Assembly: GCA_910589125.1 (NCBI GenBank)
Contig: CAJURX010000009.1
Span: 22,240-86,239, forward strand
DNA from: an uncultured Eggerthellaceae bacterium
GTDB lineage: Bacteria; Actinomycetota; Coriobacteriia; Coriobacteriales; Eggerthellaceae
Direction of reading: 5' to 3'
DNA: 64,000 bases
Positions 57,842 through 64,000 of the stretch are shown piece by piece (the first letter of the stretch is position 1; every line of letters begins with the position of its first letter). The translations under genes were made by a program, and so were the position numbers. The notes beneath the pieces are model-generated. The model worked only from the letters and a program-made list of their open reading frames with translations, had not been told where the DNA came from and ran no database searches.

Positions 57842-59143
57842 ATGAAGAAGATCCTGACCGCATCATTCACCGTCCTGTTCGCCCTCTCCGTCTGCATGCC
57901 CCTCGCTGCCCTAGCAGAAGGCGACGCGCAAGCAGATGATCCCAGCACTGCGACGGATGCGACCGCGACCGCATCCGATGAGGCTGACGGCGCTGCCGCA
58001 GACGAGGCCCCGGCACCTGAGATCATCACGCCGGAGGACATCCAGCCGATCGAGCCCGTGCCGCTGCCCGATGAGGATGCGACGCCCCAGCCGCTCGCGA
58101 ACATGAACGCGCCCACCGATCAGGCTCCTGCCGATGATGCGCCCGCCGCAGACGAGCAGGCGGATTGCCATCTCACCATAGACTATTACGAGATCGTCTA
58201 CTACGACGAGGAAGAGCCCAACCGCCTGAGGCTCATGGGGCAGCACGTGGTGGATGGCTTGAAGCCGGGAGACGTGGTGAACGTCTGGGACTACGTCTAC
58301 AACATCCCCGGATACTTCTTCTTCGATGGCACGGCTCCCTCGATCACCATCTCCGCTGACAACTCCAAGAACATGATCGAGCTCATGTACGGAAAGCTCA
58401 TGAACAACGAGTTCACGGTGAACTACTACCTGATGACCGGCGCTGATCTGGGAGCAGATGACTGGGCTGGCGCGCTGGAGACGCACCCCTCGTTCTACAA
58501 GCTGGGCGAGCAGAAGTTCGTGAACCAGATCTTCGACGAGGAGGTCAAGGGCGAGTACTTCGAGTTCGACCTGGACGGCCTCTATGCCGTTGATACCTAT
58601 CCGGAATCCATCCGTGTGGGAACGAACCCGGAAGACAACGTGCTGAACGTGCTCTACGTTCCCGAAGATGCGGTCCCACCGGCTGATGTCGTCGATCCTT
58701 CTGTGCCAGATGCTCCAGGCAACGGCTCAGGCGGCGGATCGGTCCCCACTCCTGGCCTACCTAATGAGGTGGTCGTGCCCACGCCCACCGACCCATTCCA
58801 GCCCACGCCTCCCACCAATGACCTCCCCACCGGCATCGACCAGATGGAGGGCGTCATCCTCTCAGACGGGCAGGTCAACGCCACAGCCCCCGATGAGCCG
58901 CTCGAGTTCACCGAAGAGCTGACGAGCAACACCGTCCCGAAGGAGGTCGCCGAGCGCTATGCGCGAGCCTACGAGCTGGGCCTACCGCTCCTCACACCCC
59001 TCCCCGTCGTGACGAACGCGCTGAACATCCAGATCGGATTCGCGCTCATGCTGTTCCTGATCGCCTTCCTCGCACTCTGCGTCTATGCGTTCGAGCGCGG
59101 GAAGCGCAGCGAGCGCCAAGGTCAGAGCACCGATCAACGCTAG
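57842..59143 (+). CDS. secreted, C-terminally membrane-anchored adhesin-like protein with two MucBP-like repeats
   Basis: Signal peptide MKKILTASFTVLFALSVCMPLAALA and an acidic Pro/Ala linker. Two ~80-aa beta-rich repeats (CHLTIDYYEIVYYDEE...IELMYGKL; EFTVNYYLMTG...LNVLYVPE), then a Pro-rich stalk and a C-terminal TM + basic tail. GAGGAG SD before ATG 57842. Confidence 0.6.
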   Translation: MKKILTASFTVLFALSVCMPLAALAEGDAQADDPSTATDATATASDEADGAAADEAPAPEIITPEDIQPIEPVPLPDEDATPQPLANMNAPTDQAPADDAPAADEQADCHLTIDYYEIVYYDEEEPNRLRLMGQHVVDGLKPGDVVNVWDYVYNIPGYFFFDGTAPSITISADNSKNMIELMYGKLMNNEFTVNYYLMTGADLGADDWAGALETHPSFYKLGEQKFVNQIFDEEVKGEYFEFDLDGLYAVDTYPESIRVGTNPEDNVLNVLYVPEDAVPPADVVDPSVPDAPGNGSGGGSVPTPGLPNEVVVPTPTDPFQPTPPTNDLPTGIDQMEGVILSDGQVNATAPDEPLEFTEELTSNTVPKEVAERYARAYELGLPLLTPLPVVTNALNIQIGFALMLFLIAFLALCVYAFERGKRSERQGQSTDQR

Positions 59144-59264
59144 GCGCGATCGCTACCGACCAGCCGCACGCCCCAACCAGGCCGCATGCGCCTACCAGGA
59201 TCGCATGCAGCCCCTCGTGCGCCACGGGTGTGCAACGAGAGCGCTTCTGTGCAAGAATGCACGC

Positions 59265-59930
59265 ATGGCGCACATCTATGTGATAGAGGACGACAAGGCG
59301 CTCCAGGATGAGCTGGAGCGCCTGCTCGACCTGCAAGGCTTCACCACGGCCCACTGCAACGACTTCGCACGCGCAGCGCACGAAGCGCTCGCCGCTGACG
59401 CTGACTGCGTCGTGATGGACCTCAAGCTCCCCGGCACCGACGGGCACCAGATCTGCCGGGACATCCGCGCCACCTCATCGGTGCCCATCATCATCCTCAC
59501 CTCGTCCGAGAGCGAATTCGACGAGGTCATGGCCTTGGGGCTCGGCGCAGATGACTACGTGACGAAGCCCTACCGCCCCGCCACGCTGATCGCGCGCATC
59601 CAGGGGCTGTTGCGCCGAAGCGCTGCGATGGCGCCTCCCATCCTGCAGCATGCGGGGCTCGCGCTCGACGAGGCCGCAGCCACCGTCTCCTTCCAAGGGC
59701 GCACGCAAGAGCTCACGCGCAACGAGCTCAAGATCTTGCAGCTGCTCATGCGCAATGCTGGTCGTGCGGTCAGCCGCCAGCAGCTCATGGTGCATCTGTG
59801 GGAATCGGACTCGTTCATCGACGACAACACCCTCACCGTCAACATGAACCGCCTGCGCAAGAAGCTCGCAGAGCTGGGCGCGGATGAGGACCTCATCAAG
59901 ACCAAGCGCGGGATCGGCTACATCATATGA
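59265..59930 (+). CDS. OmpR-family response regulator, BceR-like
   Basis: Receiver domain (IYVIEDD, VVMDLKLPGTDG, DDYVTKP) and winged-helix output (LTRNELKILQLL, DDNTLTVNMNRLRKKL). AAGAAT lies 6 nt upstream of ATG 59265 and there is no SD. Confidence 0.88.
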   Translation: MAHIYVIEDDKALQDELERLLDLQGFTTAHCNDFARAAHEALAADADCVVMDLKLPGTDGHQICRDIRATSSVPIIILTSSESEFDEVMALGLGADDYVTKPYRPATLIARIQGLLRRSAAMAPPILQHAGLALDEAAATVSFQGRTQELTRNELKILQLLMRNAGRAVSRQQLMVHLWESDSFIDDNTLTVNMNRLRKKLAELGADEDLIKTKRGIGYII

Positions 59931-60994
59931 TGGCCCACCCTGAGCTTGATGCCACAGCTGATGCGCCCCGCGCATTCACGCTCGGTGCCTACCTGCGCGA
60001 CAATGCGGTCATCATCGCCCTGGGCACCCTCTGCGTCTTGGGCGTGTTCAGCATGTGCTCCCTCTTGGGAGTGGGGCGGGATGGGAGCATCACCGTCGCC
60101 GCCTTCGTGCTCATCTGCCTTGCGCTGATGCTCGCCTTCGACTTCGCGCGGAGCGTTCGATTCTGGCAGGCTCTCGAGGATGCGGCCGCGAGTGCGCGCG
60201 ATGCCCACGAGATGGCAACGCTCCTGCCCCCTGCCGCCTCCCTCGAGGCGCACGCGACCGCAGGCGCGATCGACCGCATCTCCTCATTGGCGAACGCTGA
60301 ACTCACCCAGGCGCAAGCAGACGCGGAGCGGTATCGCGAATACGTAGAGCTCTGGATACATGAGACCAAGACACCCATCGCCGCAGCTCGGCTGATCCTC
60401 GACCGCATGAACGGCCCCGATGCTGACGCGCTCGCACGCGAGCTCGAGCGCATGGACAACCAGGTGGACCAAGCGCTGTACTATGCACGCTCCACCGCAG
60501 TGCAGAAGGACTACGCCATCCGCCGCCTCTCCCTCGCGAAGGCCGCACGCGAAGCATGCAAGCGCCAGGTGCGCTACCTGATCGAGAAGCAAGCGATCCC
60601 CTCAGTGGATATCCCCGAGGACATGGAGGTGCTCGCGGATGAGCCGTGGCTCGTGTTCATGCTGGGGCAGGTGATCGCGAACGCGGCGCAATACGGAGCG
60701 AGCTCGATCCGCTTCACCGCACGCGAAGAGGCCCCGGACGCACCCCATGGGCGCACGGTGCTCGAAGTGCGCGATGACGGCTGCGGGATCAGCGAAGCGG
60801 ACATGCCGCGCATCTTCGACAGGGGCTTCACGGGCAGCAATGGCCGCACGAGCGGAACAGCCACCGGCATGGGCTTGTACCTCATCTCCCTCATGTGCGA
60901 GCGCCTGGGGCTCGGCATCGCGGTCGCCAGCGAAGAGGGAACCGGCACGCGCGTCATCTTCACGTTCCCCCACGACCGCGACCGCCTCATCTGA
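59927..60994 (+). CDS. intramembrane-sensing histidine kinase, BceS-like
   Basis: Two N-terminal TM helices are joined by a loop of under 10 aa. H-box is ELWIHETKTPIAA; the ATP-binding G-boxes are RDDGCGI and GTATGMGLYL. The start overlaps the regulator stop (ATGA). Confidence 0.85.
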   Translation: MMAHPELDATADAPRAFTLGAYLRDNAVIIALGTLCVLGVFSMCSLLGVGRDGSITVAAFVLICLALMLAFDFARSVRFWQALEDAAASARDAHEMATLLPPAASLEAHATAGAIDRISSLANAELTQAQADAERYREYVELWIHETKTPIAAARLILDRMNGPDADALARELERMDNQVDQALYYARSTAVQKDYAIRRLSLAKAAREACKRQVRYLIEKQAIPSVDIPEDMEVLADEPWLVFMLGQVIANAAQYGASSIRFTAREEAPDAPHGRTVLEVRDDGCGISEADMPRIFDRGFTGSNGRTSGTATGMGLYLISLMCERLGLGIAVASEEGTGTRVIFTFPHDRDRLI

Positions 60995-61055
60995 TGCGAC
61001 CAGCCACCCAAGCGATGCGCACCCCCTGGACGCGCCTGTCACTCGGACGCGAACA

Positions 61056-61081
61056 TGACAGGGATGTAAGGTTGATGTAAG
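61056..61081 (+). promoter_or_regulatory. BceR-type regulator box: TGACA-GGGA-TGTAA plus an 11-bp-phased second GATGTAAG
   Basis: aacaTGACAgggaTGTAAggttgaTGTAAg. GATGTAAG occurs at 61063-61070 and 61074-61081. It lies about 95 nt upstream of the sORF/ABC genes. Confidence 0.5.
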
Positions 61082-61173
61082 CGCATTCGATGGCACCGCG
61101 CACACCTCAAGGAGCATCATCTTCCTGCACGATACGACCAAGAGGGGCCGATGCGGCCCGGCAGGAGGAGACC

Positions 61174-61269
61174 ATGGGCATGACAGCGAAGATCGCCATC
61201 TCATTCGCAGTAGTGATAGCCATCGGAGCTTTGGTGGCATACGAAGCTCCCCGTCTCGTGAAAGCGTGA
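61174..61269 (+). CDS. 31-codon single-TM micropeptide sORF in the leader of the Bce-type ABC operon
   Basis: GGAGGAG SD 5 nt before the ATG. It encodes MGMTAKIAISFAVVIAIGALVAYEAPRLVKA. The stop is 5 nt before the ATPase ATG (61275). It is below the size cut-off of the ORF track. Confidence 0.45.
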   Translation: MGMTAKIAISFAVVIAIGALVAYEAPRLVKA

Positions 61270-61274
61270 GGACC

Positions 61275-62099
61275 ATGACCGAGATCTACGCAACCCCCCA
61301 GAATGCCGTGCACGTGGGAACATCCAACGCGCCGGCCACCGCGCTCTCCGTGCGCCAAGCGAAGAAGGCATACGGCACGCGCGACTCCATCACCCATGCG
61401 CTGGATGGCGTGTCATTCGACATCGCCAAGGGAGAGTTCGTGGGCATCATGGGACCATCCGGCTCCGGCAAGACGACGCTCCTGAACTGCGTGTCCACCA
61501 TCGACAAGGTCACGAGCGGCCAGATCGTCGTGGATGGCAAGGATATCACCACGCTCTCCAAGCGCGCGCTGGCGAAGTTCCGCCGCGACGAGCTGGGGTT
61601 CATCTTCCAGGACTTCAATCTGCTGGACACCTTGAACGGCATGGAGAACATCGCGCTCGCGCTGACGATCAAGCATGTTGCGCCTGCTGAGATCGCAACG
61701 CGCGTGCAGAACATCGCCGCAGCCCTTGGCGTGGCAGACGTGCTCAAGCGCTATCCGAACCAGATGTCAGGCGGTCAGAAGCAGCGCGTGGCTGCTGCAC
61801 GCGCCATCGTGGGAGACCCGAAGCTGATCTTGGCAGATGAACCCACGGGTGCTTTGGATTCGCGCTCCGCCGCCGTGCTGTTGGAGACGCTGGAGATGAT
61901 GAACCAGAAGATGGGCGCCACCATCATGATGGTGACCCATGACTCCTATGCAGCCTCGTTCACGAACCGCGTGCTGTTCATCAAGGATGGTCGCCTGTTC
62001 AACGAGATACGCCGCGGGACCATGCCGCGCGAGGAGTTCTTCGCGCGCATCATGGAGGTCGTCTCATTCCTCGGGGGCGAGGTCGGCCATGTTGCTTAA
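61275..62099 (+). CDS. ABC transporter ATP-binding protein, BceA/MacB-type
   Basis: Walker A GPSGSGKTT, signature MSGGQKQRVAAARA, Walker B LILADEPTGALD, and C-terminal VLFIKDGRLFNEI typical of BceA-like ATPases. Confidence 0.9.
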   Translation: MTEIYATPQNAVHVGTSNAPATALSVRQAKKAYGTRDSITHALDGVSFDIAKGEFVGIMGPSGSGKTTLLNCVSTIDKVTSGQIVVDGKDITTLSKRALAKFRRDELGFIFQDFNLLDTLNGMENIALALTIKHVAPAEIATRVQNIAAALGVADVLKRYPNQMSGGQKQRVAAARAIVGDPKLILADEPTGALDSRSAAVLLETLEMMNQKMGATIMMVTHDSYAASFTNRVLFIKDGRLFNEIRRGTMPREEFFARIMEVVSFLGGEVGHVA

Positions 62100-64000
62100 G
62101 CTCGCATGGCGCAACATCCGCCACTCGGTGCGCGACTACGCCATCTACTTCCTCACGCTCTTGTTCGGCGTGGCGGTGTTCTACGCCTTCAACTCCATCG
62201 GGAGCCAGGAGGTCATGTTCGACCTGGAAGCTGCAGCAGATGCTCGGCAATTCGAGACCACGCAGCAATTCATGCAGATGTTCTCAGGGCTGATCGCATG
62301 CGTGCTGGGCTTCCTCATCCTGTACTCCAACGGCTTCCTCATCCGACGCCGCAAGCGCGAGTTCGGCACATACATGCTCTTGGGCATGCCAGCGAGCCGC
62401 GTCTCTGCCATCATGCTGATCGAGACGCTCCTGATCGGCCTCGCCTCGCTCGTGCTCGGGCTTGCTGCAGGCATCCTGCTCTCACATCTGATGTCGTTCC
62501 TCACGGCATCGCTCTTCGGCACGACCATCATGAACTACCAATTCGTCTTCTCAGCCGAAGCGCTCACCCTCACCATCACCTGCTTCGCCGTGATCTTCGT
62601 GATCGTGGCGCTGTTCAACACGCTCATGGTGAATCGACAGAAGCTGATCGACCTCCTGCATGCGAACGCGAAGAACCAGAAGGTGGCCGTGCGCAACCCG
62701 TGGGTCTGCCTCGTGGCGTTCGTGGCATCCATCGCCATCCTGGCATACTCCTACGAGCAGCTCATCGAGAGCGGCATGGTCATGATGGATGACCCGCGCT
62801 TCCATCGTGCGACCATAGGGATGCTCGTGGGCACGTTCATCCTGTTCTGGTCGCTTGCGGGCTTCGTCATCGCGCTCATCACACGCGCCCGCGGCATCTA
62901 CCTGCGCGGCCTCGTCCCCTTCGCCGTGCGCCAGATCGCAAGCCGCGTGAACACGGCATTCGTCTCCCTCTGGGCCATCTGCGTGATGCTCTTCTTCTCC
63001 ATCACCACCTTCTCCGTGGGCATGGGGCTGGTGAGCGTGTTCACCGACGGCATCGAGGAGGCGAACCCCTACAGCGCATCCCTCATCTCATGGATGTACA
63101 TGGATGAGCCTGAGGATGCAGGCGTCGATGACCCCTCCGCCCTGGATGCCGGCGCACGCGCGATGCAGGTCGAGCACCCTGAGGCATACGCGAACGGCAT
63201 GAGCCACGAGTGGGATATGTCCTCCGCCCTGCGCGAGGCCGCACCTGACCTTTGGGAGCAGACCATCAGCGCGAGCACGCAGCTCAGCTTCTATGAGATT
63301 CCCTCCCTCACCTATGGCGGCGTGATAGAGCAGGCCGGGAGCGAAGCGGCGGAGCGCATGAAGGAGTTCTCCTCCTTCCTCACTGCCTCTCCCCTGACGC
63401 TCCTGTCCCTCGAGGACCTGAATGCCACACGGACCATGATCGGCCTGGAGCCCATCCAGCTCGAGAGCGGGCGATGCGCCATCGTGAACAACATGGAGAT
63501 GGCCGATGGCATCGCCAAGGATATGGCGAACCCGAGCATCACCCTGGATATCATGGGCACGCCCCTTGCCTTCTCCGATGAGATCATCGACATGCAGCTG
63601 GAAGATAGCTCCTTGAAGACGACGGCGCTCGTCGTCATCGTTCCAGAGAGCGCCATCGGCGAGGTGCGCGCAGCAGGAGCCATCCCCGAGCGATGCGTGC
63701 TCGATGTGATGTATGCGGACAATGGCAAGACCGAAGCGCAGAACGATCAGACGCTCAAGACCATCTTGGAGGCCGCGCAGCCGATCGATGCAGATGCGCG
63801 CCAGCAAGATGCGCCTGCGGACGCTCCTCAATACGCGTTCCTCATGTGGCCCGTCTCACAGGCCATCACCGCCTACGAGATGGTCGCGCAAGCCAGCGGG
63901 CTCAAGATGCTCATCACCTATCTTGCGCTCTACATCGGCTTCGTGTTCCTGATATCCACAGCTGCCGTGCTGGCAGTGCAGCAGCTCTCGAACACAGCCG
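62089..64000 (+). CDS. FtsX-domain ABC permease, BceB-like (3' end beyond window)
   Basis: I translated frame 1 by eye from ATG 62089 and it stays open to the window end. The N-terminus is MLLKLAWRNIRHSVRDYAIYFLTLLFGVAVFYAF. A first 4-TM FtsX unit is followed by further TMs and a large soluble loop (~63060-63850). The start overlaps the ATPase stop by 11 nt. Confidence 0.85.
   Translation, partial: MLLKLAWRNIRHSVRDYAIYFLTLLFGVAVFYAFNSIGSQEVMFDLEAAADARQFETTQQFMQMFSGLIACVLGFLILYSNGFLIRRRKREFGTYMLLGMPASRVSAIMLIETLLIGLASLVLGLAAGILLSHLMSFLTASLFGTTIMNYQFVFSAEALTLTITCFAVIFVIVALFNTLMVNRQKLIDLLHANAKNQKVAVRNPWVCLVAFVASIAILAYSYEQLIESGMVMMDDPRFHRATIGMLVGTFILFWSLAGFVIALITRARGIYLRGLVPFAVRQIASRVNTAFVSLWAICVMLFFSITTFSVGMGLVSVFTDGIEEANPYSASLISWMYMDEPEDAGVDDPSALDAGARAMQVEHPEAYANGMSHEWDMSSALREAAPDLWEQTISASTQLSFYEIPSLTYGGVIEQAGSEAAERMKEFSSFLTASPLTLLSLEDLNATRTMIGLEPIQLESGRCAIVNNMEMADGIAKDMANPSITLDIMGTPLAFSDEIIDMQLEDSSLKTTALVVIVPESAIGEVRAAGAIPERCVLDVMYADNGKTEAQNDQTLKTILEAAQPIDADARQQDAPADAPQYAFLMWPVSQAITAYEMVAQASGLKMLITYLALYIGFVFLISTAAVLAVQQLSNTA

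Follow-up and report, generated by a model that had tools for sequence, protein, structure and literature searches.

The window analyzed here, a 64,000-nucleotide stretch of a contig from an uncultured Eggerthellaceae bacterium, carries toward its right end a two-component system and an ABC transporter, both encoded on the forward strand. An OmpR-family response regulator resembling BceR (59085 to 59930; Pfam Response_reg and Trans_reg_C) is followed by an intramembrane-sensing histidine kinase of the BceS/SapS type (59927 to 60994). In the longest ORF of the regulator gene, residue 64 is where the receiver domain begins, and the true start of this gene is probably near position 59265. The kinase (355 amino acids) matched the NCBIfam model SapS from end to end (7e-52), and BceS was its sole match among solved structures at an E value of 1e-10 or lower (4e-30). 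Downstream lie a BceA-type ATPase (61275 to 62099; Pfam ABC_tran), which is 57 to 65% identical to BceA-like ATPases of Firmicutes, and a BceB-type permease (Pfam FtsX), which starts at position 62089, overlapping the end of the ATPase gene by 11 nt, and is cut by the end of the window at position 64000. On the full contig (locus L119, 4329 to 6536), the permease has 735 amino acids. Its only matches among solved structures were BceB (1.5e-27) and PsdB, with the similarity to the BceB structure confined to the N-terminal residues 4 to 306. The ATPase also has an N-terminal extension of ~23 residues (MTEIYATP...; 61275 to 61343) that is conserved in Eggerthellaceae and missing in BceA homologues of Firmicutes, where the matches begin at residues 16 to 24 in 78 of 80 loci.

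Judged by sequence, the flanking genes are a bona fide Bce-type module: the permease belongs to the FtsX type, a BceS-type kinase and an OmpR-type regulator are encoded beside the transporter, and the region between the kinase and the transporter holds a box that fits the consensus of BceR-like regulators. Bce-type modules are the main Gram-positive defense against peptide antibiotics (bacitracin, lantibiotics, and host defensins) and a model for "flux-sensing" via a transporter-kinase complex.

Between the kinase and ATPase genes lies a micro-ORF (61174 to 61269, forward strand) of 31 codons plus a TGA stop, whose product is predicted to be a single-pass membrane helix with a basic tail. A preliminary description of this DNA had proposed a hydrophobic 31-residue product, a good Shine-Dalgarno site, a 5-nt distance to the ATPase start, and a G/C bias at third codon positions (about 18 of 30) weaker than that of the neighboring genes, and all four were reproduced here. 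Translation from ATG to TGA gives exactly MGMTAKIAISFAVVIAIGALVAYEAPRLVKA. The Shine-Dalgarno sequence GGAGGAG occupies positions 61164 to 61170 and ends 3 nt 5' of the ATG. The TGA (61267 to 61269) is separated by 5 nt from the ATPase ATG at position 61275, and the stop region (TGAGG) forms part of the ATPase Shine-Dalgarno sequence (GAGG, 61268 to 61271), an overlap that is kept in relatives. Throughout ~25 distinct loci, the micro-ORF stop lies 3 to 11 nt before the ATPase start or overlaps it, and in relatives the ATPase N terminus M[TA]E[IV]Y follows directly after the micro-ORF. The GC content at third codon positions (GC3) was 0.61 (19/31) in the micro-ORF and 0.82 to 0.86 in four neighboring genes. 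Several rare codons, those ending in A (ATA, GTA, and TCA) and TTG, occur in positions 61174 to 61266; the low GC3 may stem from relaxed selection on codons, the gene being very short, or may act as a deliberate signal for slow translation.

Other readings of these starts were rejected. A 59-codon frame beginning at ATG 61090 is not conserved (in L005 and L007, no more than 31 codons of it are open), and this ATG sits within a conserved block of the putative promoter. Nor did GTG 61266 hold as a start for the ATPase: relatives differ in the distance from stop to start, and the ATG and the M[TA]E[IV]Y terminus are constant. The ORF list supplied with the sequence had a floor of 60 amino acids; such a floor hides real genes, and the micro-ORF is another example.

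The first ORF to follow a putative BceR-type box is the micro-ORF. The box (61056 to 61081, forward strand) lies between the kinase stop codon and the micro-ORF and consists of TGACA-GGGA-TGTAA (61056 to 61069) and a second TGTAAG (61076 to 61081), which follows the first (61065 to 61070) by one helical turn. Its first part fits TNACA-N4-TGTAA, the consensus for BceR-like regulators quoted in PMC9020739. The extended pattern T[GT]ACA-N4-TGTAAG-N5-(T)GTAAG was conserved at 10 orthologous loci. A larger inverted repeat (CCTGTCA...TGACAGG, 61035 to 61063) overlaps the left half of the box; the aligned relatives do not share this repeat.

Downstream of the box we placed a putative promoter (61086 to 61120, forward strand) made up of a conserved TTCGATGGCA block, which contains the -35-like hexamer ATGGCA (61090 to 61095), and the -10-like hexamer CATCAT (61115 to 61120). 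Both the TTCGATGGCA block and the CATCAT/CATAGT hexamer are kept across orthologues with a spacer of 18 to 19 nt. The scan for consensus promoters and terminators listed no site, its promoter search being too strict for this element, and the promoter was therefore assigned from conservation alone. The transcript is predicted to start near position 61127.

The leader that would follow (61120 to 61170, forward strand) is predicted to fold into an inner hairpin and an outer helix. The inner hairpin pairs GGGCCG (61145 to 61150) with CGGCCC (61154 to 61159). The 6-bp hairpin of the preliminary description is thus present as stated, but taken alone it does not go beyond chance: its z score against shuffled sequences was -0.42, and 59 of 200 shuffles folded equally well. 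The predicted outer helix (61120 to 61128 with 61161 to 61169) extends into the GGAGGAG of the micro-ORF. For the whole leader of the window, the z score was -2.08, and values of -2 to -3.2 were obtained in five of nine orthologues tested. Stem-loops that end at the Shine-Dalgarno sequence recur, with differing sequences, at loci L115, L125, L128, L129, and L139. When the 5' and 3' arms were left with their own partners, the pairing energy was -16.9 kcal/mol, compared with -13.4 kcal/mol for swapped arms, and no permutation was as low, the sequences being kin and so not independent. A riboswitch-like role of the outer helix was considered; its 5' arm falls on the -10-like hexamer, and this arm may be untranscribed. 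A pyrimidine stretch at and after this hexamer is complementary to the Shine-Dalgarno and start region of the micro-ORF. Candidate readings of the pairing between 61120 and 61170 are a 5'-terminal stabilizer, a helix masking the Shine-Dalgarno sequence, and partly untranscribed promoter DNA. A search of Rfam with positions 60900 to 61400 gave zero matches.

We next consider whether the micro-ORF encodes a protein. The preliminary description had suggested looking for a conserved ORF in relatives and comparing its synonymous and nonsynonymous changes; for this we used a set of 10 distinct orthologous sequences. These had 31 to 32 codons each, with zero indels over the 31 shared codons. The pooled proportion of synonymous differences was 0.70 (synonymous sites are near saturation), compared with 0.28 for nonsynonymous differences, and divergence at codon positions 1, 2, and 3 was 0.33, 0.24, and 0.62, respectively. 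Pairwise omega ranged from 0.13 to 0.47 in pairs with estimable dS. In the two shifted sense frames of the same orthologues, pN/pS was ~1.09 and stop codons were present, and none of the antisense frames was open across all 10. Every copy has a Shine-Dalgarno-like sequence 5 to 8 nt 5' of its start, and the only conserved methionine is the first. At the DNA level, a search of 40 related genomes recovered an ORF of the same length directly 5' of the ATPase gene in congeners and more diverged versions in further species. Because the frame, length, and start are kept in the 10 orthologues along with a coding pattern of substitution, the micro-ORF is very probably a coding gene. The central proposal of the preliminary description, an unlisted coding ORF of 31 codons that specifies a transmembrane protein and leads the Bce operon, is supported by this conserved frame, length, and Shine-Dalgarno sequence, by the purifying selection, and by the position behind the box.

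The micro-protein has at least 17 consecutive hydrophobic residues, and AlphaFold2 with the family alignment predicted a single uninterrupted helix spanning residues 3 to 30 (pLDDT 93). Conservation was counted over 36 aligned family members. Pro26 is present in 36/36, Gly18 in 35/36, and Lys6 in 34/36; toward the C terminus, position 24 is Glu or Gln in 34/36, position 27 is Arg or Lys in 33/36, and position 30 is Lys or Arg in all 36. The tail of all 36 follows the pattern [YHN]-[EQ]-x-P-[RK]-x-x-[KR], in which E/Q24 and R/K27 are nearly invariant. Within the helix, positions 12, 16, and 19 (A12, A16, and A19 in the window) hold mostly small residues and, together with G18 and position 22, form small-xxx-small patterns, which are typical of helix-helix packing in membranes. 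Both flanks of the helix are positively charged, the N-terminal one slightly more so when the C-terminal carboxylate is counted. The hydrophobic core is not closed by a small-x-small signal-peptidase site, and the only alanine in that end region precedes a proline. For six family members, neither Pfam nor NCBIfam gave a significant match (DUF5972 reached an E value of 0.14).

To describe the distribution of the family, we searched both protein collections and genomes. The exact sequences of 9 of the 10 members queried were present, unnamed, in a collection of 15 billion proteins. Among 1.84 billion cluster representatives, the family profile had only 30 matches at an E value of 0.001 or lower, 1 of which lies within a 736-amino-acid protein, and all of the small-protein cluster members retrieved share the motif of the micro-protein. 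A six-frame profile search of whole genomes found the family in 24 of 201 Eggerthellaceae genomes, representing 10 of 64 genera. In a sample of 401 Coriobacteriia genomes, true matches came from Eggerthellaceae only (9 of 45 genomes); the sole match in another Coriobacteriia lineage was a chance match within a polytopic membrane protein. We also rejected a Rosetta-stone fusion, as the profile matched long ORFs by chance, at transmembrane segments of a membrane cytochrome and of a protein resembling O-antigen ligase. A degenerate pattern of the C-terminal nonapeptide retrieved eight public contigs, seven of them from Eggerthellaceae, including Adlercreutzia sp. ZJ304. In a word-indexed protein search, the 41-amino-acid extension of the ORF matched only itself. 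The family is thus small, unnamed, and outside Pfam and NCBIfam, although gene callers predict it in large collections.

The micro-ORF was found in none of 80 Firmicutes loci with BceA homologues (57 to 65% identical), which made up all of the loci returned by the ATPase-anchored search. In a maximum likelihood tree of the ATPase, all modules bearing the micro-ORF fell into one Eggerthellaceae-dominated clade, and the outgroup modules lacked it. Inside this clade are also modules without the ORF (L008, L012, L013/L015, and L016). A diverged copy is present at L152, which the tree marks as a module without the ORF. The simplest history suggested by these sequences would be one gain followed by several losses. 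Since sister modules in the clade do without it, the micro-ORF is dispensable for the basic pump.

Two loci from species of a sister genus, L128 (G113:C14, about 1500 to 1611) and L129 (G180:C27), have lost the ATPase gene almost wholly by an in-frame deletion. At both loci, the last few ATPase codons now close the micro-ORF, and its overlap with the permease start is 11 nt, the same as that between ATPase and permease in the window. Neither locus has an adjacent kinase gene. Between L128 and L129, the proportion of synonymous differences was 0.52; the nonsynonymous proportion was 0.11 for the micro-ORF and 0.15 for the permease, which was free of stops over 497 codons. From these comparisons, L128 and L129 are ATPase-less Bce operons in which the micro-ORF and the permease are under purifying selection. 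Since the micro-ORF outlasted the ATPase gene and stayed with the permease, it is more than a ramp for ATPase translation.

Stand-alone relatives were found in other Eggerthellaceae genera and in metagenome contigs (L140, L141, L143, L153, and L154). They encode 30 to 38 residues with the same layout and a tail of [HTR]Q-x-PK-[LV]-E-[KR]; their homology is less certain, as they score only 21 to 30 bits against the profile. None of these genes is adjacent to ABC genes; they lie far from any such gene, or at 6.7 kb and 78 kb from one. Upstream of the stand-alone genes are three repeats phased at 11 bp (GTAAG-N6-GCAAG-N6-GCAAG, as GTAAG/GCAAG units), reminiscent of the transporter promoters with their GTAAG-N6-GTAAG repeats. 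The genomes that carry stand-alone copies have BceB homologues elsewhere, in operons that begin directly with the ATPase gene and lack the micro-ORF. One BceB-like permease gene (G092:C55:114322-116448), ~6.7 kb from a stand-alone relative, contains one in-frame TAA and is possibly a pseudogene. The arrangement of the stand-alone genes would fit an in-trans supply of the micro-protein under a similar regulator and would be equally compatible with a role independent of the transporter.

What the micro-protein does is a matter of proposal. We consider it somewhat probable that it is a small membrane accessory subunit of the Bce module. The kinase-activated regulator would drive one mRNA with the micro-ORF as its first cistron. 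Ribosomes would load at the strong Shine-Dalgarno sequence, make the 31-residue protein, and terminate inside the ATPase Shine-Dalgarno sequence (TGAGG); reinitiation or a hand-over 5 nt downstream, at the ATPase start, would then couple translation of the two genes. Given a regulator-dependent promoter and such coupling, the micro-protein would be made together with the pump upon the kinase signal. It would insert in the membrane as one helix and associate with helices of the BceB-type permease, the BceS-type kinase, or both. The small residues A12, A16, G18, and A19 would form the binding face, and Pro26 and the basic tail would lie at the membrane interface. Once bound, the micro-protein may tune transport or the signal from the pump to the kinase. 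A more specific version, which we put forward tentatively and regard as possible rather than probable, has the micro-protein docking in the interface between the transmembrane helices of permease and kinase, where it would set the gain of flux-sensing; Eggerthellaceae would supply it in cis, by the leading cistron of the transporter operon, or in trans, by stand-alone genes under repeat boxes of the same regulator. If this were true, the micro-protein would add a fifth component, specific to the lineage, to a system regarded as one of four proteins.

Single-helix proteins of about 30 to 50 residues that are coexpressed with, or induced along with, the membrane machine they bind are familiar from KdpF, AcrZ, CydX, MgtS, and MgrB. 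They are comparable to the micro-protein in having a single helix, and they are unrelated to it in sequence, host, and partner; to our knowledge, none has been tied to Bce-type modules. Within Bce-type systems, the preliminary description had pointed to VraH as a precedent for a small protein that modulates the transporter, and reviews support this: VraH, a small membrane protein, is encoded in one operon with a BceAB-type transporter (VraDE) and is thought to join and modulate the transporter complex (PMC5786555, PMC10846014). PMC5786555 describes VraH as having a conserved, positively charged C-terminal tail with the motif YYKRREEKGK. On these accounts, both are small membrane proteins of Bce-type operons with a conserved basic tail. 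The two differ in that the VraH gene lies downstream of vraDE, whereas the micro-ORF lies upstream of the ATPase and permease genes and encodes 31 residues, and in that a two-component system adjoins the module studied here but not VraDE. The VraH tail motif as given there was not found among the 36 aligned members of the micro-protein family, where the tail reads E/Q-x-P-R/K-x-x-K/R. The hosts also differ, VraH being from a Firmicute and the micro-protein from an actinobacterium (Eggerthellaceae). VraH is the closest functional analogue. We treat it as an analogue only and do not place the micro-protein in the VraH family.

The preliminary description had further held that an upstream-encoded partner of a Bce-type transporter was undescribed. 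This does not hold, as YsaD, though secreted, is already known: it is an accessory protein encoded by the first gene of ysaDCB in Lactococcus lactis (a TCS-G module) and is reported to alter the signal relay between transporter and kinase (PMC7438565). Like the micro-ORF, ysaD is an accessory gene in a Bce-type operon and precedes the ATPase and permease genes. The proteins themselves are dissimilar: YsaD and YxeA (Bacillus subtilis yxdLM-yxeA) have a signal sequence and a soluble secreted domain, in contrast to the one helix and 8-residue tail of the micro-protein. A separate observation comes from Erysipelotrichaceae ([Eubacterium] hominis and Longicatena sp.; loci L034, L053, and L099), where an ORF of ~60 residues with two predicted helices, for example MKRLWIYRFELCIAASG..., ends 3 to 9 nt before the match to a BceA-like ATPase. 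This two-helix ORF may represent another family of small membrane partners of Bce-type pumps. Small membrane proteins encoded upstream of BceA may be a recurrent, underannotated theme, with the micro-protein family as the Eggerthellaceae solution.

Other explanations have to be weighed against the accessory subunit, and the one nearest to it, which we regard as unlikely, changes only the partner bound and otherwise overlaps with it. Here the micro-protein would be a feedback connector, induced by the two-component system, that docks on the BceS-type kinase at its transmembrane helices and damps or boosts its signaling; the model for such a connector is MgrB acting on PhoQ. A place at the head of a regulator-dependent operon would suit this role, and the stand-alone copies behind similar phased repeats would fit a regulon member for which stoichiometry with the pump is not needed. 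An analogy may be seen in YsaD, which reportedly alters signal relay rather than resistance (PMC7438565). At L128 and L129, however, the ORF is kept beside the permease without an adjacent kinase gene. The stand-alone relatives, distant from any ABC gene or at 6.7 kb and 78 kb from one, would also fit an independent envelope-stress peptide that is controlled by the same regulator and acts on the bilayer or on intermediates of the lipid II cycle without binding the transporter. Sister modules work without the micro-ORF, and the conserved basic tail could occupy a membrane surface. We nevertheless consider such a peptide quite unlikely: the coupling to the ATPase start is tight and conserved in most copies, ORF and permease stayed together when the ATPase gene was lost, and the homology of the stand-alone matches, at merely 21 to 30 bits, is less certain.

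If the conserved tail were the active part, the hydrophobic segment could serve for export, with the C-terminal 6 to 9 residues being released as a signal. A short basic N-terminal end, a hydrophobic core, and a conserved C-terminal tail make up a layout like that of the Phr, PapR, and SHP prepeptides, and the net-charge count slightly favors a topology with the N terminus inside and the C terminus outside. This reading strikes us as improbable, since the core does not end in a small-x-small site for signal peptidase (the only alanine there is followed by proline), the tail is near identical across species whose ATPases differ by 10 to 25%, unlike diversifying pheromones, and no gene for an RRNPP-type receptor was seen among the four flanking genes. 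Finally, the peptide itself could be functionless and only the act of its translation matter, opening the leader and feeding ribosomes to the ATPase start. The stop embedded in the ATPase Shine-Dalgarno sequence, 5 nt from the ATPase ATG, is what such an ORF would look like; the predicted leader structure reaches the Shine-Dalgarno sequence of the micro-ORF, and GC3 is low. Against this stand strong purifying selection at the amino acid level (omega of about 0.13 to 0.47), an invariant P26 and nearly invariant G18 in 36 sequences, and the persistence of the ORF after ATPase deletion and as stand-alone genes. Neither a terminator nor an antiterminator lies in the 5-nt gap, and Rfam had no match. 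The preliminary description had allowed for a regulatory leader peptide as an alternative, and we find this very improbable because selection acts on the protein, the gap is too short for an attenuator, and the ORF survives without the ATPase. Two further candidates, a type I toxin and a leaderless bacteriocin, were set aside on general grounds: the micro-protein would be cotranscribed with the pump genes and coupled to them, and it is far more hydrophobic than the amphipathic bacteriocins.

The micro-ORF is solid as a gene discovery, and its function is a proposal that is conceptually not unexpected. Its role should be testable through natural experiments already present in the family, namely, the losses in sister modules, the operons without an ATPase, and the stand-alone copies. 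The known accessories of Bce-type systems, such as VraH and YsaD, change specificity or signaling, and they are few and poorly understood. To these, the micro-protein adds a conserved and very small candidate accessory from an unexpected lineage, the gut Coriobacteriia (Adlercreutzia and relatives).
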